This document shows positions 1-59,188 of a stretch of 64,000 nt of DNA, piece after piece. The stretch spans positions 992,001 to 1,056,000 of the forward strand of contig CAWGHO010000003.1 in NCBI GenBank assembly GCA_963822445.1, written 5' to 3'. The notes beneath the pieces were generated by a model. That model was not told the origin of the DNA and did no database searches. It was given only the letters and a program-made list of their open reading frames with translations. The DNA comes from an uncultured Acidobacteriota bacterium. Its GTDB lineage: Bacteria; Acidobacteriota; Thermoanaerobaculia; Gp7-AA8. Within the stretch, counting starts at the first letter, position 1, and every line of letters begins with the position of its first letter. A program made the position numbers and the translations under genes.

Positions 1-105
1 ATGGGGGCCCGGCGGGTTGAAGTTGTGAGTCAGCGCAGCCGGCCGTGCCGGCCCGTGAAAGATTTCACAAGCGCGGAGCATACTGATTCGATCTGAAGGG
101 GACAA

Positions 106-1062
106 GTGAAAAAAGACGCCGTCATTACTCTCGTTGCCGTGGTTGTCGTTCTCGTTGCCGCATACGTTCTCGCGAGCGTTCGACCCGACCGGCCGGGCAC
201 GCCCTCGCAGCCTTTCCGCCCCGATGGGAAGGAAGCAAAGAAGAAGGGCGAGGATCCGAACGACAAAGTGATCATGCACGTCAACGGCGAAGCGGTGACG
301 GAGAGTGAATTCACCTCCCTGATGGCGCAGGCACCCGCCGAGCAGCGCGCGTTCTACGGCAGCGATCAGGGCAAGCGCCTGCTCGCCGACGAGCTGGTGA
401 AGCTGAAATCTCTCGAGCAGGAAGGCCGCCGCCTCGGCGTCGCCGACGAACCGGAAGTGCGCTCCCAGCTCGAATCGCTCGAAGCGCAGATCGTCGCCGG
501 CAAGACCCTGGAGAGACTGGTGAAGGAGCAGGTCGACAAGAACATCCAGGCGGAGTTCGCGAAAGAGAAAGCGAGCTCGAAAACGCTGCGGCACATCCTC
601 CTCGCCTATCAGGGCAGCGCCGTTCCGCCGCGCGCGGGCAAGCCGGTCAGCGCCGAGCAGGCGAAGCAGAAGGCGGCCGCGCTCGTGGCCCGCATCCGCC
701 GCGGTGAGGAGTTCGGCTCGGTCGCGCGACTCGAGTCCGACGATCAGCAGACCGCTCCCCGCGGAGGAACCCTCGGCGCCGCGCGCCCCGATCAACTACC
801 GCCGGAGATCGGAAAGGTGGTGGCCGCGCTCAAGCCGGGACAGATCAGCGATCCGGTCCAGACCCAGTTCGGCATCCACATCTTCAACGTCGAAGAGCCG
901 AAGCTCGAGGACATGCGGGAGATGCTCACCGATCGCATGCAGCGTCAGGCCGTCGAGGAGACGGTGACCCGCCTGCAGAAGGGCGCGAAGGTGGAGCTGG
1001 ACGAGAAGTTCTTCCCGCCTGTTCCCACGCAGCCCGCCGCGCCACCCAAGACCAAGGGTTAG
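106..1062 (+). CDS. PpiC/parvulin-type peptidyl-prolyl isomerase (PrsA/SurA-like foldase)
   Basis: N-terminal TM anchor; motifs RHILL, SDD..TAPRGGTLG and GQISDPVQTQFGIHIF; GAAGGGG SD before the GTG start. Confidence 0.88.
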   Translation: MKKDAVITLVAVVVVLVAAYVLASVRPDRPGTPSQPFRPDGKEAKKKGEDPNDKVIMHVNGEAVTESEFTSLMAQAPAEQRAFYGSDQGKRLLADELVKLKSLEQEGRRLGVADEPEVRSQLESLEAQIVAGKTLERLVKEQVDKNIQAEFAKEKASSKTLRHILLAYQGSAVPPRAGKPVSAEQAKQKAAALVARIRRGEEFGSVARLESDDQQTAPRGGTLGAARPDQLPPEIGKVVAALKPGQISDPVQTQFGIHIFNVEEPKLEDMREMLTDRMQRQAVEETVTRLQKGAKVELDEKFFPPVPTQPAAPPKTKG

Positions 1063-1085
1063 GCGTACACTTATCGCCATCCCTC

Positions 1086-1457
1086 ATGAGCGCGCGGAAG
1101 ATTCTCGTCGTCGAAGACAACGACATGAATATGCAGCTGGTCGAATTCCTCCTGGAAGAGGGGGGATACGACATCGTGAAAGCCGCGAGCGGCGAGGAAG
1201 CGCTGGAGATCACCCGCAACACCTCCGGCGCGCCTGACCTGATCCTGATGGACATCCACCTGCCGGGCATGGACGGCCTTTCCGTGGTCCGGGCGATGAA
1301 GACCGACGACCGCACCCGCCGCATCCCCATCCTGGCCCTGACCGCCCACGCCATGCGCGGCGACAAGGACCGTTTCCTCGAAGCCGGCTGCGACGGCTAC
1401 ATCTCCAAGCCGATCGACGTGAAGACGTTCATCTCGTCGATTGAGCAATACTTGTGA
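1086..1457 (+). CDS. Single-domain response regulator (DivK/CheY-like)
   Basis: ILVVEDN, DLILMDIHLP, ALTAHAMRGD, YISKP receiver motifs. Confidence 0.92.
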   Translation: MSARKILVVEDNDMNMQLVEFLLEEGGYDIVKAASGEEALEITRNTSGAPDLILMDIHLPGMDGLSVVRAMKTDDRTRRIPILALTAHAMRGDKDRFLEAGCDGYISKPIDVKTFISSIEQYL

Positions 1458-1461
1458 GACG

Positions 1462-1516
1462 CAAAGGCTCAAAGCGTTTCTCCTTTGAGCCCTTGAGCCT
1501 CTGAGCCTTTGAGCCT
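1462..1516. repeat. Intergenic 8-mer tandem repeat (CTTTGAGC-like x4) preceded by an inverted copy
   Basis: ctttgagc/ccttgagc/ctctgagc/ctttgagc at 1483-1514; caaaggctcaaag at 1462-1474 is complementary. Confidence 0.75.
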
Positions 1517-1536
1517 CGACTACAATCCGCCCCCTT

Positions 1537-2661
1537 ATGCGAATGCTCGTCCTCGGCGCCGGCCGAATGGGTCTCGGCGCGGTCCACGATCTCGTTTCAC
1601 AAACCGACGTCACCGGTGTGACGGTTGCTGATGCCGACGGCGCGAAGGCGCGCGACATCGCCGCGCGGTGCGGCGATCGCGTCACGCCGCAACAGATCGA
1701 CTGCAACGACGACAACGCCGTCGTCGAATTGATGCGCGGTCATGCCTCGGCCATCAGCTGCGTCAACTACTGGCTGAACGAGCGCCTCGCCCGCGCCGCG
1801 ATTGCCGCGGGCACGAACTTCTGCGATCTCGGCGGCAACAATGACGTCGTCGACGCCGAACTGGCTCTCGACGCGCAGGCCCGCGCCGCGGGCGTGAACA
1901 TCATTCCCGACTGCGGACTCGCTCCGGGCATGGTGGCCGTCCTCGTCGCGCATGGCGCGCAGCAGTTCGAGACGCTCGACGAGATCCACATCCGCGTTGG
2001 CGGTCTGCCCCAGAACCCGAAGCCGCCGCTCGACTACCAGCTCGTCTTTTCCGTCGAAGGGCTGATCAACGAATACATCGAGCCGGCGCGCGTCATCCGC
2101 GACGGGAAGATCGTGACCGTCGAATCGATGACCGAGGTGGAGTCGCTGGAGTTCCCGCGGCCGTTCGGGACGATGGAAGCGTTCCAGACATCCGGCGGGA
2201 CCTCGACGCTCGTCGACACGTTCCGCGGCAAGGTTCGCGAGCTCGATTACAAGACCATCCGCTATCCGGGCCACTGCGAGAAGTTCAAGACCATGATCGA
2301 CCTCGGCCTCTGCAGCTCCGAGGCGATCACGGTCGATGGCGTGAGCGTGAAACCGCGGCGCGTTCTCGGCGATCTGCTCGTGAAGAACCTCCCTCACGAC
2401 GAGCCCGACGTGGTGCTCGTGCGTGTCGAGTTCGTAGGCGGCGACCGCCGTCTGACCTACGACATCATCGACCGCTACGATCCGGAGACCGGCCTCAGCG
2501 CGATGATGCGCACGACCGCATTCCCCGCGTCGATCGTGGCGTTGATGATGGCTCGCAACCACACGACGTCGAAGGGAGCGCTGCCGCAGGAACGGTGCAT
2601 TCCGCCGGATTTGTTCATGGAAGAGCTCGCGAAGCGGAAAATCGACGTGCAGGTCGAATAA
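1537..2661 (+). CDS. Saccharopine dehydrogenase / lysine 6-dehydrogenase family protein
   Basis: Rossmann motif LVLGAGRMG; DCGLAPG, FSVEGLINEY and KTIRYPGH. Confidence 0.88.
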   Translation: MRMLVLGAGRMGLGAVHDLVSQTDVTGVTVADADGAKARDIAARCGDRVTPQQIDCNDDNAVVELMRGHASAISCVNYWLNERLARAAIAAGTNFCDLGGNNDVVDAELALDAQARAAGVNIIPDCGLAPGMVAVLVAHGAQQFETLDEIHIRVGGLPQNPKPPLDYQLVFSVEGLINEYIEPARVIRDGKIVTVESMTEVESLEFPRPFGTMEAFQTSGGTSTLVDTFRGKVRELDYKTIRYPGHCEKFKTMIDLGLCSSEAITVDGVSVKPRRVLGDLLVKNLPHDEPDVVLVRVEFVGGDRRLTYDIIDRYDPETGLSAMMRTTAFPASIVALMMARNHTTSKGALPQERCIPPDLFMEELAKRKIDVQVE

Positions 2662-2697
2662 CTTTCGGTGCGGCCGGTTAACAATGCGAACCGGTCC

Positions 2698-40723: not shown

Positions 40724-41236
40724 CTAGCCGTCATGAACGTCGAGTCTCACCGGGTCGCCGGCACGGCACCCTTTGGTCGTGCAGTCGAGAAGCGGCACCC
40801 AGTAAAACGAAGCGCCCGGTCTGCCGCCGGAGGAGATGCGCACCGCTATGCCGTCGGTCGGGTTCCCGGCAACGCCGCGTTCGAGAATCGGGGAGACTTC
40901 AACAAGGACGCCTTCGACGTACGCTCCATTGCGAGGGGCGGCCACGGCGACGATGGAACATGCGACGTTTTTCGGAACATCGATCTCAGCAGGCTCGAAC
41001 CGCGCTCGCAATCCATCCTCGATCCGGCCGACTTCTTCGACTTCGGCTGCGGTGGCCGGGATGGACTTGTAATGAATCCATAGTGCCGGAATCGGCCAGA
41101 TGGGCTGGGTTTTCGAGACGAGAGAAACAGTCCGTGAATTCCGCAGTTCATCGATCGTGCAGATTTGCCTGAGAACGGCCTCCGCAGGCGATTGGGGAGT
41201 GCTCGCACATCCGAAAAGGAGTGCAGACAACCACAC
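40724..41236 (-). CDS. Hypothetical lipoprotein; start uncertain
   Basis: Lipobox-like LFGC; lies downstream of the Sel1 gene in the RHS operon. Confidence 0.5.
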   Translation of the reverse strand: MWLSALLFGCASTPQSPAEAVLRQICTIDELRNSRTVSLVSKTQPIWPIPALWIHYKSIPATAAEVEEVGRIEDGLRARFEPAEIDVPKNVACSIVAVAAPRNGAYVEGVLVEVSPILERGVAGNPTDGIAVRISSGGRPGASFYWVPLLDCTTKGCRAGDPVRLDVHDG

Positions 41237-41283: not shown

Positions 41284-41934
41284 CTACCGCACCCTCTGTT
41301 CATTCAGAATGCCCTGGATGAGCTTACGTTGCTTCTGAAGTTGAGAAGCGAAGTAGGACTTCGGATGGACCGACGCCAGGGCCCGGTCCTGAAGCACGGT
41401 GCATTCTCGGCACTGCTGGATGTCGCGCTCGGCCGCGGCCCTGTCGCACAACCAGAGGATTGCGTCGACATCGCCTCCATGCGCCCCCTTGCGGAACCAG
41501 GATTCGGCGGTTTCCAGGTTTCTGGTGACGCCGGCGCCGTCGCGGTACAGCTTGCCCAGGGTCGACTGGGCGGTCGACGAGCCATGCTCCGCCGAGCGGT
41601 GCAGGTAGCCCATGGCCATTCGTTTTTGTTCGGGGTCGTCACTCCCATTCAACCTGTCGAACATGTGGAACTCGGCTCTCGCATCGCCCGCGTCCGCCGC
41701 CCGCCGCAGCCATGCCACGGCTTTCTCGGGTTGTTCTCCCTCGTCGAAGTAGATGTAGAGGCGCATCATCGCGGGCACGTTGCCATTGGCCGCGGCTCGC
41801 TCCAGCTCCCGGATCTGCTCATCGCCGAGATGCTCACCACAGCAGGTCTTCCTGATCATGAAGTAGGAAGCCGCTGCGATCAGCAAAGCCGCCGCGAAGA
41901 GCAGGCTAATCCCACGGAAGTGGACGTATCTCAT
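41284..41934 (-). CDS. Sel1-like repeat protein; candidate immunity protein
   Basis: AVAWLRRAADAGD, AQSTLGKLYRDGAGV, WFRKGA; N-terminal TM/signal; overlaps the RHS 3' end. Confidence 0.82.
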   Translation of the reverse strand: MRYVHFRGISLLFAAALLIAAASYFMIRKTCCGEHLGDEQIRELERAAANGNVPAMMRLYIYFDEGEQPEKAVAWLRRAADAGDARAEFHMFDRLNGSDDPEQKRMAMGYLHRSAEHGSSTAQSTLGKLYRDGAGVTRNLETAESWFRKGAHGGDVDAILWLCDRAAAERDIQQCRECTVLQDRALASVHPKSYFASQLQKQRKLIQGILNEQRVR

Positions 41935-43483
41935 CTTTTTCCTGTTGTCGAACGCCGTTGACGAACGTTACCTGATTCCCACGCGTCGTGAAATCCGGCC
42001 AACCCTCGCGCTTCTGTCCACCGTTTGCCCCCCACGTCCCCCACGTACCCAGATCGACCCCGAAGGTCCAGGTTGGCTGGTCGTTACCAGTCACGGACGT
42101 CTGCATGATCTTCGACAGCTCTTCCGCAATGGAATCGTCACCTCGCGCCGAGTTACAGGAGTTGAGGATGATTGCCGTGCCGGGACGCCATATCTGGGAG
42201 TCTGCCCGGATTTTGTCGGCCAGCTCCTGCGCAGTCATTCCATTCACTTTCGAGCTGGTTCCGTGAGAATTGATGAGGATCGTGTTGTCCGGCACGGAGT
42301 TCAGCCATGCTGCCATTCGATTGCTGTATTCGCGCTTGCCGAAGAACGTCATCTTTTCGCCTTCAGCGCTCTGCTCGGTTTCAGCCGTGGCCGTGGAGCT
42401 CTTCTTTGGCTCAGGCTCCTCTCCGCACGGTTTGTCGCCACGTTTCTCGAAACACGGCGGCCCCTTGTCCGCCAATCCGAACGGGTCAGTCCGGCTCATC
42501 GGATTGTTACGCGTATACGCATAGCGGTTCCAGGATTGCGGATCGCGCTGATCACCAAGCACCGGATCAATGGACAGGAAGCGGCCCAGAGCCGGCGAGT
42601 AATACCGCGCGTGCATGTAGTCGAGGGTGTCGGGTCCGTCGGTCAGCCACTTATCGCGCTCGTGGCCGGTGTACTGCAGGGGAGTGGCCGCCGGTTCCGT
42701 CAACCCGCCGCTGACCTCCGGGCCGAATGCGTAGTAGTCGTGAAACCCGATGATGCGATTGTTCTGATTGGTCACGCGCCGCGGCGTGCCGAGGTGGTCG
42801 AGGTGATAGTGCTCCCTAGCGGCGCCGATCCCGGTGCGACGCACGGACGCGAGCAGGAGCCCGTCGCGATAGACATAATCGCGAGTCCAGGTGAAGGCGC
42901 CCTGTGCATTGCTGGCGAATTCGCGCAGGACTTTCCCGTTCACATCGCGAATGGTCCAGGTCCACGACGAGCCGACCAGGTGGGTCGCAATACGCTCGTC
43001 GTCCGCCGTATAGACGAATTCCTTGGCCATCCCCCCGCCGCTGTCATCGCGGACGGGCATGTTCAGGATGTCGTACGTGTACGTGTGTCCCTGGTACGTA
43101 CGGATGTTGCCGGCGTCGTCATAGTTCAGGTTCTCGACGCGATTCGTCGTGGAATCGATGGACTGGCCGAACTGGCAATCGCTCACTTCCGTGGTTTCGG
43201 GCGCGTGCGTGCAGCCGGTGCGGTTACCGAAGGCGTCGTACGTGTACACGCGCGTGACGCCGTTGACATCGGCCTGCACCAACCGGCCAGCCTTGTCGTA
43301 AACGAACCTGTCCTTGTCGATCTGGCGCACGTTGCCCGAGCCGTCGTAGGTGTACTGAAGGCCGTTGTTCCAGTTCACCTTCTCGGCCGGGGCAGGGCCG
43401 GCAGCAGGAGCGATCCGCGCATCCGCCAGAAGCGGAGCCGCGGCCAGAATGGAAGCGAGAGAGACGATCGTGAGTCGAATCAT
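41906..43483 (-). CDS. Stand-alone RHS-core protein with own signal peptide and C-terminal HG...C protease-like tip
   Basis: MIRLTIVSLASILAAAPLLA; YD repeats; HLDHLGTPR, YTGHERD, DYMHARYY, NNPMSRTDPFG. Confidence 0.92.
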   Translation of the reverse strand: MIRLTIVSLASILAAAPLLADARIAPAAGPAPAEKVNWNNGLQYTYDGSGNVRQIDKDRFVYDKAGRLVQADVNGVTRVYTYDAFGNRTGCTHAPETTEVSDCQFGQSIDSTTNRVENLNYDDAGNIRTYQGHTYTYDILNMPVRDDSGGGMAKEFVYTADDERIATHLVGSSWTWTIRDVNGKVLREFASNAQGAFTWTRDYVYRDGLLLASVRRTGIGAAREHYHLDHLGTPRRVTNQNNRIIGFHDYYAFGPEVSGGLTEPAATPLQYTGHERDKWLTDGPDTLDYMHARYYSPALGRFLSIDPVLGDQRDPQSWNRYAYTRNNPMSRTDPFGLADKGPPCFEKRGDKPCGEEPEPKKSSTATAETEQSAEGEKMTFFGKREYSNRMAAWLNSVPDNTILINSHGTSSKVNGMTAQELADKIRADSQIWRPGTAIILNSCNSARGDDSIAEELSKIMQTSVTGNDQPTWTFGVDLGTWGTWGANGGQKREGWPDFTTRGNQVTFVNGVRQQEKDEIRPLPWD

Positions 43484-43485
43484 GG

Positions 43486-46400
43486 CTATTTCTTCCCAAC
43501 CACCTGGACGTTGCCCTGGCCCACCCGTTGTTCGACGGCTCGCAGGCCGTCCCAACCGGTGGCGAGCCAGATGCCGCCGTCACGTTTGAGCAGGACCACG
43601 CTGACGGCGTCGTTGACGGAGGGCTCACCGGCGTCGGTCGCGGTCACGACGAGCGGCGCGCCGTCGACGATGACGGCCGGTGCCGTCGAATCCGTGACGT
43701 CGCGCAGCGTGGCCGTGCCGACTATCGTGGCCAGACCACCCGCGGCGGTCCGGCGGATGGACATCGAGACGGGAGCCGCGGTCAGCTCGTACGAACGAGC
43801 GACTTCGCCTTCCGTGCGCGTGAACGCGAACGTGAGCTTGCCTTTCAGGACGGCGTCTTTGTCGTATTGCAGGTTGACGTTGAAGCGCAGCGACGTTGCT
43901 GTCTGTGGTGCGTACGGACCGGCCGCCGAGGCCACGCCGGCGCTGCCACCGCCGTTGAGCGAATCCTCGGTCGGCGTGGCGATGGTCATCGCCAGATCCT
44001 CCGCCGCAGCGTCACGGGTGTAATGGCCGCCGACGCGCGCGCCGACGGTCAGCAATGCCGGGAGCGTCGTGCCGAAGTCGCGCGTGAACGTGCACGTGGC
44101 TACGCCGGTCCGCTCGTCCGTGGCGACGAGCAGCCCGATCGGAGCGGTGCAGAGAACGGTGTCCGTGGAACGATCGACGAAGGTGAGCGTGGCCGTGCGG
44201 ATGTCACCCGCATCGACGTCACCGTTTGCCTCGGCGGTGACGCTGATGTCGCGAACCGTGGCCGCGAGGGTCACGCTCGTCAGTCCGCTGCGCGCGCCGC
44301 CGATGAAGGCCGGCGAGGTGATCAGCACCCGCGCATCCTCGGCAGTCACAGTGAACGTCGAGCCGACGTACGTGATCGCGTAATTGCTCGAGGTCAGGCC
44401 GCCGATGGTGATCGGGTACGTACCCGGCGGGGAGAGGCGCTCGGCCGTGGTCTGGATCGACAGAACGCCGGTGAGCACCGCCGGAGTCTCGCCGAGGACG
44501 AAGCCGGTGAACGTGGCCGTCAGTTGCGGCAGGGGATCGCTGTACTGCTTCGAAGCCGGATTCGCGGCGATGGTCAGCGGCGCGGGAAGAACCGTCAGTG
44601 TCGACGGCGTGATGGTCACGTCGTAGTTGACCAGACGGTTGTTGGGATCGACGAGCGTCGCCGTGATCGGATACGTGCCGGTCACGCTCTCGTGCGTGGC
44701 CGTGGTGGCGTACGACGGCGCGATCGGATCGTTGTTGACGACGCCGGTGAGGACGCCTGTCAGCGCCGGAACCGGCGCGCCGTAGAGCTTCGACTTGGCG
44801 TCGACGACGAGCGACAGCGGCGCGCGGAGCACGTCGAGCGTGACCGACGCCGACGCGGGGAGGTAGTTCGGCGTTTCGGCAACGGCGACGGAGAGAACTT
44901 GTCCCCCGGCGTCGAGCACGGTCCCGGCCGGTGGCGTATACGTCAAAGCGCCGTGCGCCGCGGGTCCGACCACCTGTACGGCGGCGTTGAGCTGCGTCGC
45001 CGACAGCGCCGTTCCGTAGACGATCGGCACGGGTGCTGTCCAGACGATGGTCTGCGGGGCTTTGGCCACGTCGATCGTGGTGGCGATGTCGCCCTCGTTG
45101 TAGTTGCGCGTGTCGGACGGCGTGAAGTGTGCGGACAGCGTGTGACCCGTACCCGCGTCGAGAATCGTTCCCGCGGCGGGCGTGTAGTCGAACGTGCCCG
45201 GCACGTCAGCCGTGGCGTTGAGTTGCGTGGACGAAAGGGCCGTGCCGTAGACGATCTCCGCCGGCTTCGACCAGGCGAGAACGGGATCGGCCTTCTGCAC
45301 TTCGAGCGTCGTGGTGGTGCTGGCGTCGTTGTAGTTGCCCGTGTCGGTGGGCGTGAAACTCGCGGTGAGCGTATGCAGACCGGCTTCGAGCAACGTGCCG
45401 GCCGGCGGCGTGTAGATGAGCGTGCCCGGCACGTTGGCGGTGGCGTTGAGCTGTGTCGCGCCGAGGAGAGCCTTGTAGACGATCGGCGCGGGCTGCGGCC
45501 AGGTCAGGACCGGCGTCGCCTTGAGGACGTCGAGCGTCACCGTCTTGCCGGCGGCGTTGTAGTTCGGTGTTGCCGCGACAGAGACGGAGAGGGCCTGTCC
45601 CGCGCCGGCCTGGAGAACCGTGCCGGCGGCAGGGGAGTACGTCACCGCACCGGCGGGCGAGGGACCGACCACGGTGACCGTGGCAGCGAGCTGCGTCGAT
45701 GACAGCGGCGTGCCGTAGACGATCGGCGCCGGCTGCGGCCAGGTGATGATCTGCTCCGCTTTGGCCACGTCGAGGAAGACCTTCAGCGTGACGGATTCGT
45801 AGTTGCGCACGTCGCCGGGGATGAGCTTCGCTGTCAGCTCGTGACGTCCCGCGTCGAGAACGCTGCCGAGCTTCGGCGTGTAGGCGAACTGGCCGGGGAT
45901 GCTGGTCGTGGCATTGAGCTGCGTCGCGGAGAGCGGCGAGCCGTAGACGATCGGCGCCGGAGCGCTCCACGTCGCCACCGGCGTGGCTTTGGTGATCTCG
46001 ATCGTGACGAACGCCGTCGCCGGCTGGTACCGGCTGTCGGCAGGCGTGAAGACGACAGCGAGTCGCTCCGTGCCGGCGCTCAGGATCGTGCCCGCCGGTG
46101 GCGTGTATGCGAACGTCCCCGGCACATTCGTCGTGGCGTTGAGCTGCGTCGACGACAGCGGCGTGCCGTAGACGATCGGAGCGGGGTTGTTCCAGGTAAC
46201 GAGCGCCGAGGAACGCGCGACCACGACGTCCACGGTGGCCGTGGCGGAGTTGTAGTGATCCGTCCCGGCCGCGCTGACTTTCAACTCGTGGGTGCCTTCA
46301 GGCAGCAGGGTGCCGGCGGGCGGCGTGTAGGTCAGCGCGCCGGCCGGCGCGGGACCGGAGGTGATGACCGCGGCATTGAGCTGGGCCGCGGTGAGAGCAT

Positions 46401-49400
46401 CACCGAATGGCATCGTCGCCGGATCGGACCAGCGGATGATCTGCTCGCCCTTCCCGACATCGATGGTGGTCGTGGCCGTGGAGAGGCTGTGGTTCGGGCT
46501 CTCGGGCTCGAACGTCACCCGCAACGTCTGCGCGTTGCCCACGGCCAGGAGCGTGCCCGGCTCCGGATCGTAGGTGAATTCACCGGCCAGGTTGGAGGTG
46601 GCGTTGAGCTGTGCGCTGCCGAGCGGCGCGCCGTACTTGATCGCTTCCGGGCTGGCCCAGGTCACTGACGAAAGAGCCTTCTGGACGATGAGCAGCGCGT
46701 TCTTCGTGATCGGCGCGAGCGTCGCGTCGGCCGGCGTGAAGGTCACGCCGAGGGTCTGATAGCCGGCATTGAGAATCGTGCCCGCGGGCGGTGTGTAGAC
46801 GAACGTGCCGGGTACATCGGCGGTGGCATTGAGCTGCGCCGCGGAGAGCGGCGTGCCGTAGCCGATGGGTGCCGGGTCGGTCCACGTTACGGTTGCCGGC
46901 GCGGCCGTGACGACCAGGTTTGTAGTCGAGGACGACGCGTTGTGCGTCGTGTCGCCGTCGAAGCGGACCGTGATCGCGTTCGGATACGTTCCTGCCGCGA
47001 TTCCGGCCACGCTCTTCGCGGCCTGGACCAGGCCGGTTGCGTCGGTTCGCAGACGAGCGAACTCGCTGCCATTGAGAGCGAAGACGAGCTCCCTCTGCGC
47101 GAGCGGGGTGCTGCCGGCAGCGAGCGTCGCGGTCACGGCCACGGCCGTACCGACGGTGGGCGGATCGGCGACCACGGCGATGGAGGTCGCCGTACGCGGA
47201 TCGGTGCCGGTGCCGGAGGGGCCGGCGACAGTGCTGCCGCCGCCGCCGATCTGCCAGTTCAGATCCTCGCGTTTGTCGATTGTGACGGCCTTCTCGGGGT
47301 CGGGATCGATATAGAGACCGCTCATGACCCAGACCTTGTGCTCGCCGGTTACGACGTTGCGCCAGACGATGTCCGGTCTGCCCAGCGAGTCGCCGTCGAA
47401 GTTGCCGATCACGGCCGGCATCCAGTTGGGATCGAGCGTCGTGGCCAGCGGCTTGATGGCGGCTTCGAGCCTGCGCAGCGGAGAGCGGCCCATCTTGTCG
47501 CCCTGAGGCGTGATCTGCGGGCCCTGCTTCGCGTCATTCATGACCCAGATCGAGTTCTCACCGGTATTGCGGTTGTGGAAGAAGAGGTCCGGCCTACCGT
47601 CGCCGCTGAAGTCATCGGCGCCGTGGAGACCCCAGCCCTGACCCGAGTTCGCCGGCAGGGCCCAGGTGCCTTCGCGGTCGGCTCCGTCCATGAACCAGAT
47701 CTCGTTTTCACCCGTGGCTTCGTTGTGCCAGACGATGTCGTCGTTGTAGTCGTCGTCGAGATCGGCCACGCCGCCGATCGTCCAGGGGCCGTCTTTGCGC
47801 AGCTCGATCGGTTGCGGAGGCTGGATCGGAGTCGTTCCGCTCATCCTCCAGACCTCGTTCGCGCCGGTCTCGGGATCGCGCCAGACCAGGTCCGGACGCT
47901 CGCTGTCGTCGATGTCGCCCACGCTCTGCAACCGCATGCCGGGCTTGGTGTTCACCGGCAGGCCGAACGTCTGGAGCCGGTTGCCCTTGGCATCGAGCGT
48001 CCAGATTTCATTCGCACCGGTGACCGTGTTGTGCCAGACCAGGTCCGCGACCACGTCGCCGTTGAACGATTTGGAGACCGAGCGCCGCCGCTGGCGCGGC
48101 TGCTGGTAGAAGAAGGCGGCCGCCGTGCGGCTGATCTGTGAGCCGCAGGAGTTGGTGACCTTGGCCCAGTAGAAGGTCATCCCGTGCGGCCGGACGGTGG
48201 CGGTGTCGGTGTTTCCGCCGTCCGCGGCAGAAATGGGGTCGCTCTCGTCGCCGGCTTTGCCGCGGTACCACTGCCAGGTTCCCGACGCGTTCGCCCACAG
48301 CTTGATCTCGCTGGAATGGCCGAAGATGAGATGGTCGCCGGGCGCCTGATTCAGGCCCCAGGGGAAGGAGTTGGTGATCAGCGGCACGCTGCAGCTGCTG
48401 CCGGCGTTGCGGAAGGTGACCGACTTGCTGACCACCCCTTCGCACCACTCGTTGTCGACGGTCGCGACGTAGGTCACGGTTTCGCCGTCGTCGGGATAGC
48501 CTGCGTCGCCGGGCGCGAGCGTCAGCGCGGAACAGTCGTCATTCGGACAATCACGGATCTTCCGGCCGTTCGCGTACCACCTGTAATTGAGATACGTGCC
48601 TTCCACGTGGATGCGCAGGGAGACGTTCTGTCCGTTCCGGACGGTGCCGCCGTCCTCGAGGTCGCTGACCATGGTCGGGCAGACGACCGGCGGCGGCGCT
48701 TCCTGGTTCACCCGGGCCGTCTCGACGCCGCCGTTGATGGAGAGCGTCGCCATGCGCTGCTTGCCGTTGTTGACGTCGGCGCGGAAGGAAACGATGCCGT
48801 TGCCCTTGCCGCTCCAGGAAATGAGATCGAGCCAGTCCTGGTCATCCGTGACGGTCCACTCGCATTCGGCCGGGGCGATGACGTTGACGCTGCCGTCGAA
48901 CGCGAACTTGTACGGGATGAAAACGGGCGAGGTCGAGAAGCGGAACGTGCAGTCGCTGCCTTGCTCGACAGGGATGTTCTTGGTGTTGTAGTCGAAATCG
49001 ACCCAGACGTTGTCGGAGCGCTGGCCGGAGCCGCCGAGCGCCGGCACATCGACGTTGAACTCGCCGTATCCCTGCTTCTTCACGATCGGTCCGACGCGAT
49101 TCGACAGGAACCCCGATGGGTTCATCGGCTCCCACGAGCACCTGTTCGATGTGTTGACGGCGACCGCGAAGATCCCGCCCGCCGCGCCGACATTCATGAA
49201 ACTCGGAACGACGGTGTACGACATGAAGTCGCAGATGATGGTGATGTCCGCGGTATCGGTTTCCGCCGGGAACAGCCCGCCGGCGTAGCTGACGGTCACG
49301 CCGTCCTTGTGGGTAGCCTGAGCGAGGTCGAGCGTGTACTCGAGCACGGCTTCGCCGGTCGGACCGGTCTTCGCCGTACCGATCGGTGTGCCGAGGACGC

Positions 49401-52400
49401 TGAAGGTCAGGTCTTCGTCGACGAGGGGACCGTTGGCCGAGGAGAGCTTCGCGGAGAAGCGCGCCTTCCGGCCGATCGATGCCCACACGTTCGCGGCGAC
49501 GAGCTGCGTATCGCCGTCGCACGACTCGAATTTGAACGGCTTGCCGACCAGCTCCTCGGTCAGACCGCGCTGGCATACACCCATTCCGCCTTCGACCTCA
49601 GGCCCTTCGGCAACGACCGTGTAGGTGTACGTGTTGCCTTTGACGGCGGTGGTGTCGAGGAACTTCGTGCCGGTGATGCAGCTCGATCCGGAGATGTTCA
49701 CGCCGTCGCGGAGGACGCGGTACTTGATCGTGCTCGCGGCGCCGCAAAGCATGGCCGCGGGCCAGGAGACCTCGATGCCGCACGCCGTCGGATTGACCTT
49801 CGCGCGCACGAAGCCGGCGTCGAAGTACGGATCCGTGTTCGTGCAGCCGGTGAACGTGATCTTGCTCGGGCGGGGGATTCCGTTCCGGGCGCTGTAGGTG
49901 TCGGTGGGGTCGTCGAGGGCCTGATGCTGGACCTTTTCGACCATGCCGGAGGGGTGGTAGGTGAGCGTCGCGAATCCTTCGACTTCGGTCAGACGGCCCG
50001 CGGTGCGGTTGTTCGTGACAGAAAACAGGCCGTCGTCGACTGCACAGACCGAATAGGTGCAGCGCGGCATGCGGATCGTGTCCGGCAACAGGTTCTCGTC
50101 GTAAGTGACGCCGTAGTCGAACTCCTGGATGGTGGTCGCGGTGCGGTTGTTCTGCCCGTCGTAGGCCGCGCGCTCGACCAGCGTCTTCCGCGTGTCGACC
50201 TTGCCGGTGGCGCCGTAAATGTAGCTCTCGGTGACCTCGATGTTGCCGTTCCCGGGCGAGGAAAGCCTGTTGTACCGGATCGCTTTCCTGAGCTTTCCAT
50301 CGTCCGCGCCGTCGACTTCGAACACGAATTTCTTGAGCGGACCGCTCGGGCCGGCCACTTCGACGAGACGCTCGGCGGAGTCGAAGGTGTAATCGGTCGT
50401 CACTCCGCCGATGGTGCGTTTCCAGGCGTGACCGCGCGCGTCGTAGTCCTCGTACGTGGTGTATTCGATGCCCGCCTGGTCGGGATCCTGGGTCTCGGGA
50501 TGCGATTCCTTTTCGAGGAAGCCGCGCTCGTCGTACGTGAAGGTACGCGTTTGGGTCACGTCTTCAGAGGCGCTCGCCACCTCAGCGGTGGTCGACACCT
50601 CGATCAGTCTGTCGTCGATGTTGTACGTGTAATCCGTGGTGACGGGACTCCCGCCGGGACCGGACCGTTGGATGACCGATTCGAGGCGGCCTTGTGCGTC
50701 GTAAAACTCGGTGACGACGACGTTCTCGCTTCCGCCGAGCGAGGTAGCCACGCCCTGCGCGCGGGTTTTCCTGCGGATGCCGGAGTATTCGAAAGTCGTC
50801 GTGGTGAGGTCGGGAGCGCGGACGGTTTTCTGGCGGTTGAAGGCGTCGTAGGTGACGTCCGTCGCGTCGCCGGAGACGTCGGAGAATGGATGCTGGGCGA
50901 GCTCGATCGGCTGGGTGACCGAAGCGGCTCGTCCGAGCGCGTCGTAATCGTTCTGCACCACCGCGACCTTGCCGTTCGGCAGGGTCTTGCTGGAGCGTTT
51001 CACGCGCCCGAGGCCGTCGTACTCATAGGTGTTCGTGGCGATGACGCCCGACGGGCCGGTGACCGTTTCGATCACGTGCGCATTCCGGCTGGCGGTGGAG
51101 TTCTCATACTCGTAGCTGGCCGTCGCACCGCCGGCGGGCTTCACCGATTTGAGGCGGACGGGCTTCGCTTCGTAGTCGTATGTGGTGGTGACCCCGGCGG
51201 TGTCTTTTTTCTTGACCACGACGCCGGTGAAGACGTCGACCCAGAGGTCGAGGCTTTTGAACGCGAGCTCCGTACCGTCCTCACGCTTGTAATACTTCGA
51301 CCAGACGGGGAAGCCGCCCGTGTAAAACTCCGTGCTGCTTCCCTCCACCGGCGTCAGGTAATGCGTCTCGACCTGGTACCAGGGCTGGCCGAGGGATGTG
51401 ATGCCGGTGCTGCAGTCGTGCGTCTCCGGCAGCGTGTTCTGCTTGTCACCGCCGAAGTTCTTCACGAACTCGATGTCGCCGAGGGTGGAGGGCTCGTAGA
51501 CAGTGAGCAGGTCGTTCTTGCTCGGTTTGGTCGAATCGACGAGCAGGCGGGTGCGCTCGAGGAAGCCGGTGGTCGCGTTGAAGCAGGCCAACTGGCGGCG
51601 TGTCTCGGTACCCTTCGAGACGTTGCGCTCGGTGAATAGTCCGGTGATCCAGACCTTGCTCTTGATGAACAGGTCGTCGTGCTCCCACTTGTCGTACTTG
51701 GTGATGGTGGTCTTCGATTCGGCGTCCGGGAAGTTGCTGCTCTGGACGACTTTCCCGTAAACGCCCGCGCCGTTGTCATCGAAGTGGTCGGTGGCGATGT
51801 AGCAGTCGCCATCGCAACCCGCGTCGTCCTGTTCGTGAAAGACGGTCTTGGATGACTGGAGCTGCTGCGCTCGATCCGTCCCATAGACGAGCGGATAGGC
51901 CGACCTGTCGACGCTCAGCGGATGGTTCTCGTATTTGGTGTGGGTCGAGCGTTCGAGCTTGCCGTTCGTGCAATCGCCGGCTGTCGTGCAACCCGAGTAG
52001 ACCTCGGTGGTCAGACGCCGTCCGTCGGCATCAGCGGCGTATTCGGCGTCGCCGAGGACCCTCGGTCCGAGAGGTCCCTTTCGAACGGCTGGTGATGACG
52101 TGACGATCGTTCCCGGATACCCGAACGCCATCCGTCCCTCGACCGCCCACGGATCGACGGGCCGCGGCTCATCGCCCGGGAACGGGACTCTGGGAGGACA
52201 CTCGCCGAAGCTCGTGTCGAAGTAGAAATCGAACGAATACGTGTCGAAGTAGTGATCGCTGCGTGTCCGGAACTTTGCACTGCCAACCCCTTCCTCCGGC
52301 GAGAGAACGGAGGTCCGAAACCAGTAATGGGGCAGGGCACTGCTCGCGCCGATCGGCGACACCAGACTGCAACAGTAGTTGGCCAGGGGGTCGGGAAAGG

Positions 52401-53577
52401 TGACGGGTGCGGCGTGACCGCCGTCGTGTACGTAGTCCCATCGGCGCTTGGTCAGCGGGTTTCCATCCGAGATGGTGCGGCTCTTGATCCCGGGGTCGGA
52501 CGTCCAGTCGGCGCAGGTCAGTTTTCCGGGGTGCACATATTCCTGATACTCGTAAACGGTGCTGCCACCGGTCGGCAGCACCATGCTGGCCATCGCGCCG
52601 AGCCGCGCCGGATTGGCGCCGGTCGGATCCGGATCGCTGTAGTAATTGAATTGAAAGCTGGAGCCATCCGGTTGCGCGACACTCGTCAGCATCGGCAGCG
52701 AAACGCGATCCTCTCCCAGCATGAGCCGCACCGACATGGTCGTATACGAGAAGTCGTACAGAGTCTTGGCGCCGCCGAAACCCATGTAGTCGATGTAGTC
52801 GACGATCGACCCGCGATCGACGCCCTCGTTGAGGTCCTCGTCGACTGCGTAGTGAATGACGTGCTCGGTAGCGGTCGAGTCGAGAATCGTCTGTTTCAGG
52901 ACACGGCGGTCGTCGTTCGCTTCGTCGTACTCGTAAGTGAATGTCACCCAGCTCCCGAAGCGATCGGAGATCTTCTTCAGACGATAGGCGTTGCGCTCCC
53001 ACTCGAAGCGGTGCCTTTCTCCTGAGGGAAACTCGACGTCATAGCTGGCTTTGGGACTGGCCGGAACCTTGACCAGCCGCAGTGCGGACGCATCCATCGA
53101 GACCATCACGTCTTCGGTGCCGTAAAAGCCATGCTCGTCGCCTGCGGCGCTCTCGTATACGAAGGCCTCGCGAGTCGATGTCGTCCTGGGAATGATGGTC
53201 GGGTCCGACGGCGGAAGGAGGCGACCGAACGTGAGGCGCCAACCCAGACCGGCGTTCGATCGGCGATTCGGCAACGACTCCGTGCAATACGGAACTCCCC
53301 ACGGCGCTGGAACGCAGCCTTCGACCGCTTCGTGATCCCACACCTTGCCGTTGTAGATGACCTGCATCTGGTACGACAGCGTCTTGCTGACCTGCTTCCG
53401 TGGCCCGATCGGCACGGTGAGCATCAGGTTTCCGTTGAACAGATTGACGGAGTCGATCTCCGAGTAGTCGTAGAGCTTTCCGGGCTGGAATCCGAGCTCC
53501 AGGTCCGGCCCTTTCTGTGCGACGGCCGGAACGGCCAGAGCGAGGATCAGTGCGGCGAGGGCGATCCGCTTTTTCAC
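43486..53577 (-). CDS. 3363-aa secreted RHS/YD-repeat protein fused to Ig/BACON-like, FG-GAP-like, nine tandem Ig-like and MBG-like domains; lacks the RHS core
   Basis: Signal peptide ...AVA|Q; VNLFNGNL; YDGLGRV, YDALGR, YDAQGRL; DLVWHNTVTGANEIW repeats; PAPIVYGTPLS repeats. Confidence 0.9.
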   Translation of the reverse strand: MKKRIALAALILALAVPAVAQKGPDLELGFQPGKLYDYSEIDSVNLFNGNLMLTVPIGPRKQVSKTLSYQMQVIYNGKVWDHEAVEGCVPAPWGVPYCTESLPNRRSNAGLGWRLTFGRLLPPSDPTIIPRTTSTREAFVYESAAGDEHGFYGTEDVMVSMDASALRLVKVPASPKASYDVEFPSGERHRFEWERNAYRLKKISDRFGSWVTFTYEYDEANDDRRVLKQTILDSTATEHVIHYAVDEDLNEGVDRGSIVDYIDYMGFGGAKTLYDFSYTTMSVRLMLGEDRVSLPMLTSVAQPDGSSFQFNYYSDPDPTGANPARLGAMASMVLPTGGSTVYEYQEYVHPGKLTCADWTSDPGIKSRTISDGNPLTKRRWDYVHDGGHAAPVTFPDPLANYCCSLVSPIGASSALPHYWFRTSVLSPEEGVGSAKFRTRSDHYFDTYSFDFYFDTSFGECPPRVPFPGDEPRPVDPWAVEGRMAFGYPGTIVTSSPAVRKGPLGPRVLGDAEYAADADGRRLTTEVYSGCTTAGDCTNGKLERSTHTKYENHPLSVDRSAYPLVYGTDRAQQLQSSKTVFHEQDDAGCDGDCYIATDHFDDNGAGVYGKVVQSSNFPDAESKTTITKYDKWEHDDLFIKSKVWITGLFTERNVSKGTETRRQLACFNATTGFLERTRLLVDSTKPSKNDLLTVYEPSTLGDIEFVKNFGGDKQNTLPETHDCSTGITSLGQPWYQVETHYLTPVEGSSTEFYTGGFPVWSKYYKREDGTELAFKSLDLWVDVFTGVVVKKKDTAGVTTTYDYEAKPVRLKSVKPAGGATASYEYENSTASRNAHVIETVTGPSGVIATNTYEYDGLGRVKRSSKTLPNGKVAVVQNDYDALGRAASVTQPIELAQHPFSDVSGDATDVTYDAFNRQKTVRAPDLTTTTFEYSGIRRKTRAQGVATSLGGSENVVVTEFYDAQGRLESVIQRSGPGGSPVTTDYTYNIDDRLIEVSTTAEVASASEDVTQTRTFTYDERGFLEKESHPETQDPDQAGIEYTTYEDYDARGHAWKRTIGGVTTDYTFDSAERLVEVAGPSGPLKKFVFEVDGADDGKLRKAIRYNRLSSPGNGNIEVTESYIYGATGKVDTRKTLVERAAYDGQNNRTATTIQEFDYGVTYDENLLPDTIRMPRCTYSVCAVDDGLFSVTNNRTAGRLTEVEGFATLTYHPSGMVEKVQHQALDDPTDTYSARNGIPRPSKITFTGCTNTDPYFDAGFVRAKVNPTACGIEVSWPAAMLCGAASTIKYRVLRDGVNISGSSCITGTKFLDTTAVKGNTYTYTVVAEGPEVEGGMGVCQRGLTEELVGKPFKFESCDGDTQLVAANVWASIGRKARFSAKLSSANGPLVDEDLTFSVLGTPIGTAKTGPTGEAVLEYTLDLAQATHKDGVTVSYAGGLFPAETDTADITIICDFMSYTVVPSFMNVGAAGGIFAVAVNTSNRCSWEPMNPSGFLSNRVGPIVKKQGYGEFNVDVPALGGSGQRSDNVWVDFDYNTKNIPVEQGSDCTFRFSTSPVFIPYKFAFDGSVNVIAPAECEWTVTDDQDWLDLISWSGKGNGIVSFRADVNNGKQRMATLSINGGVETARVNQEAPPPVVCPTMVSDLEDGGTVRNGQNVSLRIHVEGTYLNYRWYANGRKIRDCPNDDCSALTLAPGDAGYPDDGETVTYVATVDNEWCEGVVSKSVTFRNAGSSCSVPLITNSFPWGLNQAPGDHLIFGHSSEIKLWANASGTWQWYRGKAGDESDPISAADGGNTDTATVRPHGMTFYWAKVTNSCGSQISRTAAAFFYQQPRQRRRSVSKSFNGDVVADLVWHNTVTGANEIWTLDAKGNRLQTFGLPVNTKPGMRLQSVGDIDDSERPDLVWRDPETGANEVWRMSGTTPIQPPQPIELRKDGPWTIGGVADLDDDYNDDIVWHNEATGENEIWFMDGADREGTWALPANSGQGWGLHGADDFSGDGRPDLFFHNRNTGENSIWVMNDAKQGPQITPQGDKMGRSPLRRLEAAIKPLATTLDPNWMPAVIGNFDGDSLGRPDIVWRNVVTGEHKVWVMSGLYIDPDPEKAVTIDKREDLNWQIGGGGSTVAGPSGTGTDPRTATSIAVVADPPTVGTAVAVTATLAAGSTPLAQRELVFALNGSEFARLRTDATGLVQAAKSVAGIAAGTYPNAITVRFDGDTTHNASSSTTNLVVTAAPATVTWTDPAPIGYGTPLSAAQLNATADVPGTFVYTPPAGTILNAGYQTLGVTFTPADATLAPITKNALLIVQKALSSVTWASPEAIKYGAPLGSAQLNATSNLAGEFTYDPEPGTLLAVGNAQTLRVTFEPESPNHSLSTATTTIDVGKGEQIIRWSDPATMPFGDALTAAQLNAAVITSGPAPAGALTYTPPAGTLLPEGTHELKVSAAGTDHYNSATATVDVVVARSSALVTWNNPAPIVYGTPLSSTQLNATTNVPGTFAYTPPAGTILSAGTERLAVVFTPADSRYQPATAFVTIEITKATPVATWSAPAPIVYGSPLSATQLNATTSIPGQFAYTPKLGSVLDAGRHELTAKLIPGDVRNYESVTLKVFLDVAKAEQIITWPQPAPIVYGTPLSSTQLAATVTVVGPSPAGAVTYSPAAGTVLQAGAGQALSVSVAATPNYNAAGKTVTLDVLKATPVLTWPQPAPIVYKALLGATQLNATANVPGTLIYTPPAGTLLEAGLHTLTASFTPTDTGNYNDASTTTTLEVQKADPVLAWSKPAEIVYGTALSSTQLNATADVPGTFDYTPAAGTILDAGTGHTLSAHFTPSDTRNYNEGDIATTIDVAKAPQTIVWTAPVPIVYGTALSATQLNAAVQVVGPAAHGALTYTPPAGTVLDAGGQVLSVAVAETPNYLPASASVTLDVLRAPLSLVVDAKSKLYGAPVPALTGVLTGVVNNDPIAPSYATTATHESVTGTYPITATLVDPNNRLVNYDVTITPSTLTVLPAPLTIAANPASKQYSDPLPQLTATFTGFVLGETPAVLTGVLSIQTTAERLSPPGTYPITIGGLTSSNYAITYVGSTFTVTAEDARVLITSPAFIGGARSGLTSVTLAATVRDISVTAEANGDVDAGDIRTATLTFVDRSTDTVLCTAPIGLLVATDERTGVATCTFTRDFGTTLPALLTVGARVGGHYTRDAAAEDLAMTIATPTEDSLNGGGSAGVASAAGPYAPQTATSLRFNVNLQYDKDAVLKGKLTFAFTRTEGEVARSYELTAAPVSMSIRRTAAGGLATIVGTATLRDVTDSTAPAVIVDGAPLVVTATDAGEPSVNDAVSVVLLKRDGGIWLATGWDGLRAVEQRVGQGNVQVVGKK
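44821..46893 (-). repeat. Nine ~76-aa intragenic repeats arranged as (A-A-B)x3
   Basis: TWxxPAPIVYGxxLxxxQLNA...YTPPAGTxLxAG; repeats 3, 6 and 9 carry a GPxxxGA insert. Confidence 0.85.
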
Positions 53578-54215
53578 TTGCCCACCTCGCCCAGGAAGAC
53601 GTCGAGATGTCCGAGATCGACGGCTACGACCACGTCGCCGGCCTTGAGATGCTTCGGCGCCTTTTCCTTCCCTTCCTCGAGCGGCTTGGCGTCCTCGAAG
53701 GCCATCGAAAGGCGGCCGTTGGCCTCCTTGTCGCGATCGGCGCTTCCTCCTTCACGTCCCCGAAGAGTCCACGCTCCTTTTTCCGGACGAACGACGAGGA
53801 GCATCAGGCGGAGGATCCGCTTCTCCAGCGTCGCGATCTGGTCGTCGGCGTCCTTGCGGAGCATTGGTGCGAGCGGCGCGACGTAAAGCGGAAAGCCCTC
53901 CCGCGCGCCCGTGGCCACGGCTCCGGTCTTGTAGTCGACCGCGATCCATACCGAGACGTACGGCACCGGGCCGGGCAAAGAGACCACGCCGTCGCCGTCG
54001 TCGTCGCGGAGAAGCCGCGGCCGCGAGTCGTTCACGCCCTGCCCGTTGCGCACGTATTTGGCGTACGAGAAGAGCACAACGTCACCACCGGGTGTGAGGT
54101 TGGAGACCCGCACGCTGTCTTCGCCGACTTGCAGCGCCAGAGGTGCGCTCTGGGCGAGTGCCGCAGGAGCGAGTGCAATGAGGACGAGGAGGGAGAAGAA
54201 GGACAGAGTCCGCAT
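53574..54215 (-). CDS. Secreted hypothetical protein heading the RHS operon
   Basis: Signal peptide ...ALA|Q; GTGA overlap with the giant gene. Confidence 0.75.
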   Translation of the reverse strand: MRTLSFFSLLVLIALAPAALAQSAPLALQVGEDSVRVSNLTPGGDVVLFSYAKYVRNGQGVNDSRPRLLRDDDGDGVVSLPGPVPYVSVWIAVDYKTGAVATGAREGFPLYVAPLAPMLRKDADDQIATLEKRILRLMLLVVRPEKGAWTLRGREGGSADRDKEANGRLSMAFEDAKPLEEGKEKAPKHLKAGDVVVAVDLGHLDVFLGEVGK

Positions 54216-59177: not shown

Positions 59178-59188
59178 GGCGGGTCTCC

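Follow-up and report, generated by a model that had tools for sequence, protein, structure and literature searches.

RHS cocoons are thought to trap an unfolded toxin as a single chain, or as the TcB and TcC chains of a toxin complex (Tc), while these fold in the cytoplasm. Here we describe a locus from a soil acidobacterium of the class Thermoanaerobaculia in which the cocoon is probably divided between two polypeptides that both carry Sec-type leaders. The locus lies on the minus strand of a 64,000-nucleotide stretch of contig CAWGHO010000003.1 (GenBank assembly GCA_963822445.1, positions 992,001 to 1,056,000; 63 to 68% G+C), hereafter the window. It comprises four, perhaps five, genes in head-to-tail order: a gene for a 213-amino-acid (aa) accessory protein, a giant gene, a small gene, a gene for a Sel1 protein, and possibly a 170-aa frame. 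The giant and small proteins are the subject of this report.

Among described systems, the closest are the TcB-TcC pairs of insecticidal Tc (ABC) toxins (YenB/YenC2, 4igl; TcdB2-TccC3, 4o9x and 6h6g), which have the two-protein cocoon layout that we infer here, in which the second protein brings the core, the cleavage site, and a variable toxin. The C subunits are described as interchangeable (PDB 4igl; passages of PMC11067744), and the same passages report that a single Tc B subunit can accept several C subunits, one of them encoded at an "orphan" locus. A first, sequence-only reading of the window had started from the premise that RHS proteins are single chains. That premise does not hold, and because TcB/TcC is already a two-chain RHS cocoon with interchangeable C subunits, the two-chain idea is less new than that reading stated. 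Rhs effectors of type VI secretion systems (T6SS; RhsA 7q97, RhsP 8h8a/8h8b, Tse15 8uxt, and S. bongori Rhs 8qjb) share with the window proteins the shell fold (Z of 17 to 21), a DPxGL core, and polymorphic tips with immunity genes, but they are single chains loaded onto PAAR/VgrG in the cytoplasm, whereas the window system has Sec leaders. Neither TssC (PF05943) nor PAAR (PF05488) had a match in the 94.7%-complete genome to which the window belongs (VgrG was not searched for), so that the lack of PAAR and T6SS genes first noticed in the window extends, for these two families, to the genome. Bacterial teneurin-like proteins (TLPs; PDB 9ifo and 9pt5; PMC13018210) also hold a toxin in a YD shell, but they are single chains of ~2,200 aa.

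Two further comparisons can be made. Arrays of orphan rhs-CT cassettes resemble the loci described here in having tandem copies with a common conserved part and different tips; unlike in those arrays, every window-type copy forms an entire gene that has its own start and leader and encodes the last part of the shell completely. Single-chain, Sec-dependent RHS toxins of Thermoanaerobaculia (e.g., P0144 with a ribonuclease tip, P0257 with an HNH tip, and L059) share full-length homology, the same accessory gene, and the same leader with the window system, but each is one chain, and most of the cassettes that follow them are truncated and have no leader. Zhang et al. (2012) list Sec- or type II secretion system-type RHS toxins and acidobacteria, and the searched passages of that paper contain no split form (PMC3482391). 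Text searches of the literature likewise returned no description of a Sec-exported two-chain RHS toxin. Four features set the window system apart from TcB-TcC: the split point, Sec leaders on both chains, a putative adhesin arm where TcB would dock to TcA, and a target that is likely to be bacterial.

The two chains and their single-chain relatives

The sequence-only reading had given the giant a signal peptide and a YD shell of ~1,240 aa ending near IPRPSKITF, followed by ~2,100 aa of adhesin-type domains that never reach an RHS core. Its coordinates were right. The protein starts with a sequence of signal-peptide type, VKKRIALAALILALAVPAVAQ, and IPRPSKITF occupies residues 1234 to 1242 (about 49852 to 49878). 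Pfam matched RHS_repeat in both the giant and the small protein, in the giant as a single stretch (residues 959 to 997); beyond residue ~1260 it found Ig-like, BACON, FG-GAP, and MBG_2 domains, and an NCBIfam scan of the giant found no RHS core. From its domains, the tail is a putative adhesin or anchoring arm, and P0124 and P0125 have the same tail. A sequence search of residues 1 to 1300 against the Protein Data Bank (PDB) returned nothing relevant (one chance match, E = 0.14).

In the small protein, the leader MIRLTIVSLASILAAAPLLADA is followed by a short linker and then VNWNNGLQYTYDGSGN; the protein also contains YTYDGSGNVRQI. Its RHS core scored 66.1 bits against an NCBIfam cutoff of 32.5. 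The description of this gene as one that begins 2 nucleotides downstream of the giant with its own signal peptide, resumes the YD repeats, and supplies core, DPFG, and tip was confirmed in every element, with the leader judged by eye and by our hydrophobicity rule. The best PDB sequence matches of the small protein were bacterial TLPs (4.2e-11). Its residue 337 aligned with the final residue of 9ifo_A (2144), 8qja_A (1879), and 4igl_B (690), and residue 336 with position 1151 of the 1,152-residue post-cleavage RhsP chain 8h8a_A. Because the alignments stop at the ends of these solved chains, self-cleavage is predicted after L337 of DPFGL.

Shell, core, and tip do not lie on one polypeptide in this locus: the TAG of the giant (43486 to 43488) is followed by 2 bases and then by the ATG of the small gene (43481 to 43483) in another frame. 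Three Logan contigs from three studies span 43480 to 43490 (X2 record 3, 43312 to 43546; X3 record 8, 43449 to 43593; X4 record 12, 43393 to 43638) free of indels, and no difference is listed for any of them at 43481 to 43488. These contigs, of which the depth at the junction is only 2 to 3, differ from the window at nearby places and therefore derive from related strains. For the junction stretch, the data sets listed comprised DNA contigs with small shares only and no RNA data set. With three contigs in agreement, the TAG, which the sequence-only reading had singled out as a possible error, is no assembly slip.

When residues 1 to 1200 of the giant were compared with 1.84 billion representatives, there were 2,693 matches at E ≤ 0.001, 943 of them at ≤1e-30. 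We scanned the best 150 of these shell representatives with a profile of the conserved part of the small protein. The profile was present in 57, at ~1150 to 1500 of proteins of ~1,500 to 1,900 aa (only partly in three of the 57, P0183, P0185, and P0201), and absent from 93. Pfam scans of 14 of the 150 distinguished three builds: fused proteins in which the shell is followed by core and tip (a ribonuclease or HNH, for instance); coreless proteins of ~1,600 aa with PKD, Ig, or fn3 domains past the shell; and coreless giants bearing the tail found in the window. In BLASTP comparisons with eight fused relatives, residues 1 to ~1218-1255 of the giant corresponded in all eight to their residues 1 to ~1144-1198, and the small protein from residue 7-44 to 336-338 corresponded to their residues ~1156-1211 to ~1457-1531, the two matches abutting. 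The fused relatives also begin with the same leader type as the giant. Single-chain relatives, of ~1,600 to 1,750 aa, thus correspond first to the giant (residues 1 to ~1245) and then to the small protein (residues ~38 to 336). By these alignments, the giant and the small protein are colinear halves of one RHS protein, and the fused and split orthologues with variable tips that the sequence-only reading had named as the relatives to look for both exist.

The junction alignment places the break at one conserved linker of ~10 residues after an RP motif. Fused rows read GMxRPxSI, ~10 residues, and W..G.Y.YDGAGN, and split carriers read RPSKITF and then Ig-like sequence. Some fused relatives have inserts at the split site, TIG+SLH in L054:9170-9997 and L107:1975-2811 and a dockerin in L114:2068-3135. 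These proteins look like intermediates, and surface domains inserted at that place suggest that the linker faces outward.

A separate observation concerns the same region of the carriers. A cysteine lies 6 to 13 residues past the conserved RP motif in all split carriers shown (window 49780 to 49842, minus strand) and not in plain fused relatives; it may simply be part of the first Ig-like domain. We considered and dropped an intermolecular disulfide through the cysteine after RPSKITF, as the next Ig-like domain has further cysteines and pairing within a domain is equally likely.

Structural models agreed with the alignments. The AlphaFold model of giant residues 22 to 1221 (44-row alignment) was all-beta, with a pLDDT of 85.8 and a pTM of 0.84. 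The first 48 ranked Foldseek matches of this N-shell model were shells of RHS, Tc, or teneurin proteins (best E = 8.4e-31), and in VIA its residues 21 to 1200 aligned to solved RHS shells (Z of 21.2 to 8qjb_A), which bears out at the fold level the shell extent first proposed. The model of small-protein residues 36 to 340 (63 rows) had a pLDDT of 71.6, with hairpins at 80 to 92 and the plug (model residues 233 to 305) below 50, and it aligned to 8qjb_A with a Z of 16.7. In VIA, the N-shell and small models covered, respectively, 13..1769 and 1763..2155 of TcdB2-TccC3 (6h6g), 360..1148 and 1040..1420 of 8qjb_A, 152..913 and 832..1169 of RhsP (8h8b), 305..1112 and 1014..1459 of RhsA (7q97_A), and 722..1940 and 1825..2144 of the TLP 9ifo_A. 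Overlaps of 80 to 110 residues between the two models on solved chains probably reflect repeat register. As modeled, the separately folded giant and small proteins tile one solved cocoon.

Both window models align to Tc chains at Z of 13 to 16, and the predicted start of the giant, like TcB, resembles the SpvB N-terminal domain (model 28..284 against 6p0x_A: Z of 12.7, root mean square deviation of 3.5, 208 residues), with no Pfam SpvB match. However, the split in the window lies ~290 residues further along the shell than in YenB/YenC2 (YenB 4igl_C 13..1484 corresponds to model 5..931, and the small protein to YenC2 291..690). Unlike TcB-TcC, both window chains have Sec-type leaders, and the carrier runs on into the putative adhesin arm, not into a TcA dock. 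To our knowledge, Tc proteins lack signal peptides. Searches of the window's genome gave no match to the SpvB family and none to TcA_TcB_BD (PF18276), although the control for the latter matched in none of 14 genomes.

TABLE 1 Coordinates of the features of the RHS operon in the window
Feature	Position	Strand	Remarks
Accessory gene (P0003), 213 aa	53574..54215	-	Signal-peptide-like N terminus; 4-base overlap with giant start
Giant carrier gene, 3,363 aa	43486..53577	-	GTG start; TAG stop included
Giant leader, residues 1-21, signal-peptide-like	53515..53577	-	Sequence reading; similar starts in relatives
N-shell, giant residues 22 to ~1245	49843..53514	-	Incomplete RHS/YD cocoon, SpvB-N-like start, without core or plug
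Giant tail, residues ~1246-3363	43489..49842	-	Pfam: Ig-like, BACON, FG-GAP, MBG_2
Junction: giant TAG, 2 bases, small-gene ATG	43481..43488	-	Different frames
Small cartridge gene, 525 aa	41906..43483	-	Leader, YD repeats, RHS core, DPFGL, tip
Small-protein leader, residues 1 to ~22, signal-peptide-like	43418..43483	-	Sequence reading
C-shell, small residues 36-249	42737..43378	-	YD hairpins continuing the shell; match to ~1195-1400 of fused relatives
RHS repeat-associated core, small residues 250-337	42473..42736	-	TIGR03696, 3e-18; ends in DPFGL (333-337)
Toxin tip, small residues 338-525 (188 aa)	41909..42472	-	HG...C motifs; no firm family match
Candidate immunity gene, 216 aa	41284..41934	-	N-terminal membrane anchor and Sel1 repeats; Pfam Sel1, 5.9e-12
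170-aa frame	40724..41236	-	Lipoprotein-like start (LLFGC); operon membership uncertain

Split and fused loci across the class

To characterize gene order, we collected two sets of loci. The first was selected by the small protein: there were 537 confirmed matches, of which the best 80, representing 74 loci, were kept. Among them were 64 complete short core genes in 52 loci; 60 of the 64 genes had a leader by the hydrophobicity rule, versus truncated cassettes not cut by a locus edge, largely behind fused genes, of which 21 of 24 were leaderless. A coreless shell gene lay directly upstream in 24 of the 52 loci. The upstream DNA was too short to tell in 14, and in another 14 at least 3 kb of upstream sequence was visible with no shell gene; the last group consists of two leaderless orphans behind fused genes and 12 stand-alone genes with leaders.

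The second set was selected by the shell alone, with a profile of its last 700 residues and 201 genomes sampled from the class. The profile matched in 90 of the 201 genomes and in 49 of 80 genera; the 90 include the window's own genome and the unpublished genomes G179 and G135, and without those two, from which no locus was taken, the count is 88 of 199. From the first 45 listed matches besides the window's own, 40 loci were fetched (four were omitted because their downstream side is at a contig end, and one was partial). Twenty of the 40 were fused (two with inserts), 17 had a coreless gene followed directly by a complete small gene, and three ran into a contig end. Wherever the DNA downstream of a coreless shell gene could be read (17/17), a complete, leader-bearing small gene thus adjoined it. 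Gene spacings and overlaps vary among split loci. Judged by gene order, the two-gene layout is conserved and recurrent.

The small genes themselves form a large family. A search with residues 1 to 345 of the small protein found 1,851 proteins at E ≤ 0.001 among 6,923 candidates of 288 to 919 aa; the best 120 of the 1,851 were 330 to 638 aa long, and the few named ones came from Thermoanaerobaculia or Acidobacteria. All 24 relatives that were retrieved start, on visual reading, with a hydrophobic leader. The window gene matches the family profile from position 1, with its own start and leader, unlike headless orphan cassettes. In an alignment of 15 family members, identity was high until DPxG and was lost right after it. 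P0005, the closest among the matches listed (82% identity over the searched part), has a different tip, and P0008 (65%) has the tip of the window. Other members end in a phage lysozyme (P0009) or HNH (P0019) tip. Ten loci contain two to four complete small genes in tandem, and in 14 tandem pairs the shell parts were 62 to 95% identical and the tips 13 to 23%. Such tandem cartridges, with a common shell part and unlike tips, fit the exchangeable toxin cartridge envisaged in the sequence-only reading.

Many small proteins have an additional domain of ~80 to 100 aa between leader and C-shell (RYIVILKQRSG... type), with no Pfam match. We saw it in P0016, P0037, P0064, and P0087 and in the small genes of L030, L036, and L071.

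Of this family, the genome that contains the window encodes a single shell gene and a single small gene. It also has more distant, classical long RHS genes of a different subfamily (C1:532274-538402, C2:1021077-1026614, and C2:368607-372371), the second of which is followed by an orphan-like frame (C2:1027357-1029426).

We then constructed a FastTree phylogeny of the shell part from 135 rows, namely the giant and 134 representatives of at least 1,400 aa (16 shorter ones were dropped). The label fused or coreless requires 14 changes on this tree, and its starred branches force at least 12; shuffled labels required a mean of 43.2, and none of 500 shuffles was as low. The giant sits in a group of 23 rows, all coreless (support, 99). 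With 12 to 14 label changes, fused and split forms have, on this tree, replaced each other repeatedly. The sequence-only proposal that an adhesin insertion split an ancestral RHS gene holds up in part: the halves are colinear, the site is conserved, and surface domains are inserted there, whereas the unrooted tree gives no direction of change. Co-divergence of carrier and cartridge would be no test of a partnership, since linkage by itself would produce it.

Proposed assembly in trans and competing explanations

We consider it probable that the operon encodes a Sec-dependent RHS polymorphic toxin with its cocoon divided between two polypeptides, and we infer that the giant and the small protein assemble physically in trans. 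Since each part has a Sec leader, the two would have to fold, join, and enclose the tip after export. The N-terminal side of the shell, four-fifths of it, would come from the giant (residues 22 to ~1245), whose chain would exit through a surface linker and go on as the ~2,100-aa Ig/FG-GAP/MBG arm. The small protein would add the final hairpins of the shell, a core plug in which aspartyl self-cleavage would occur at DPFGL (after L337), and the toxin of 188 aa. Judging from the leaders, both chains would pass unfolded through the inner membrane by Sec and meet in the periplasm, where the first hairpins of the small protein would join the open edge of the carrier sheet. By analogy with established knowledge of RHS and Tc proteins, the tip would be enclosed when the plug closes and would then be cut free inside. 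The arm would hold the loaded cocoon on the producer surface or on the target cell, and the membrane-anchored Sel1 protein would shield the producer. A broader version of this proposal, to which we give slightly less than an even chance, is a reloadable container: one Sec-exported carrier would take any of several exported cartridges, from tandem or distant loci, and enclose their tips in the periplasm. Such a container would have arisen independently of the Tc B/C split and would have been gained or lost a dozen times in one acidobacterial family through surface-domain insertions at one exposed linker.

Several points weigh against assembly in trans by an obligate pair. We know of no precedent for closure of a cocoon in trans around a 188-aa tip outside the cytoplasm, and no route for export across the outer membrane was seen in the neighborhood of the operon. 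The leaders were judged by eye and by our own hydrophobicity rule rather than with SignalP. The two sets of loci overlap (same genomes and many of the same contigs), so that their counts are not independent, and the tree is unrooted, rests on FastTree only, and includes P0183, which was labeled fused on a partial match and may be mislabeled. Moreover, 12 leader-bearing small genes stand alone, with at least 3 kb of upstream DNA and no adjoining shell gene (L004, L007, L010, L015, L024, L027, L033, L042, L043, L046, L053, and L055); for at least five of them, judging by record titles, the genome has a split locus elsewhere. The hairpins of the small protein fold confidently by themselves, leaving room for an independent role. 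These last two points, together with the very large size of the small-protein family, fit a reading in which the two proteins have common ancestry and separate work, with the small protein a self-sufficient, Sec-secreted mini-RHS toxin and the giant an adhesin with an open shell remnant that is functionless or repurposed. We regard this as unlikely. Its hairpins (~215 residues) and plug correspond to no more than roughly the final fifth of a solved cocoon, so that the small protein could not enclose a 188-aa tip, and the plug is poorly predicted alone. The N-shell, for its part, stays conserved and is confidently modeled, every readable coreless shell gene keeps an adjoining complete small gene, and repeated switching between fused and split forms argues for functional equivalence.

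Other explanations concern the status of the small gene or of the junction. Much as in classical rhs loci, the small genes stand in tandem with conserved parts that are nearly identical and tips that are unrelated, which could be taken to mean that they are mainly a recombination reservoir of cassettes, like orphan rhs-CT modules, rather than expressed partners; yet split loci have no full-length core-bearing gene to recombine into, and each cassette has its own start, its own leader, and a complete C-shell where truncated cassettes are mostly leaderless, which makes a reservoir very improbable. A ribosomal frameshift that joins the two frames into one chain is less probable still. Only 2 bases separate the genes, and upstream of its ATG the frame of the small gene has no stop for 24 codons, but in a fused chain a hydrophobic leader would end up buried in the shell, we read no slippery heptamer in GGGAAGAAATAGCCATG, and the leader is conserved whereas spacing and overlap vary among split loci. 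That the two frames lie so close is also the only feature that would suggest a single rhs gene broken by a sequencing error or a recent mutation. We give this the smallest chance of all, given an identical junction in three contigs from three studies, the ~2,100 aa of Ig/FG-GAP/MBG domains between the end of the shell and the stop, and a layout that recurs in 24 loci from the small-protein set and 17 from the shell set.

Toxin tip, neighboring genes, and implications

The tip of the small protein gave weak leads only. The sole Pfam match was DUF4347 (E = 0.11), and the Atlas scores were 0.86 for unnamed clusters and 0.78 for a cluster in which 13% of the members carry Peptidase_C80; assignment to Peptidase C80 or DUF4347 is accordingly no more than a lead from sequence comparison. 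On our reading, the motifs ..INSHG.. and ..LNSCNS.. in the tip (41909 to 42472) recall a His/Cys peptidase dyad. The Sel1 gene and the end of the toxin gene share 29 bases, and the position of the Sel1 gene suggests an immunity role. Because an immunity-like gene follows the toxin gene, the target of the system is probably bacterial. The 170-aa frame beyond the Sel1 gene had no Pfam match and one weak relative, in L052.

At the other end, the operon starts at the 213-aa gene, because the Mg-chelatase/ComM-like gene upstream of it points the other way. The accessory protein had no Pfam match and no PDB profile match, and none of its Atlas leads scored above 0.80. In fused and split loci alike, it has homologues, 26 open reading frames in all, immediately upstream of the shell gene (e.g., L001:3526-4344 and L025:4123-5241), and from this placement the protein appears to be a conserved third component. 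Elsewhere in the same genome, a 1,422-aa open frame (C2:2407175-2411443, plus strand) has a stretch that resembles it (E = 2.8e-14). A FadL/TodX-type outer-membrane channel (59189 to 60469, minus strand) and a GDSL lipase (57753 to 59324, minus strand) are encoded a few kilobases upstream in the window, with no evident link to the operon.

These findings should be of clear interest to those who work on polymorphic toxins. If assembly does follow export, two pieces that nature has matched and that can be handled apart would make the order of events in cocoon closure directly testable. The split site is permissive by nature, with TIG+SLH, a dockerin, or a 2,100-aa arm found there, and it may be useful for the engineering of RHS containers. 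Finally, the shell family is common in an understudied class of soil bacteria, which points to contact-dependent or surface-bound antagonism in Acidobacteriota without the need for a T6SS.

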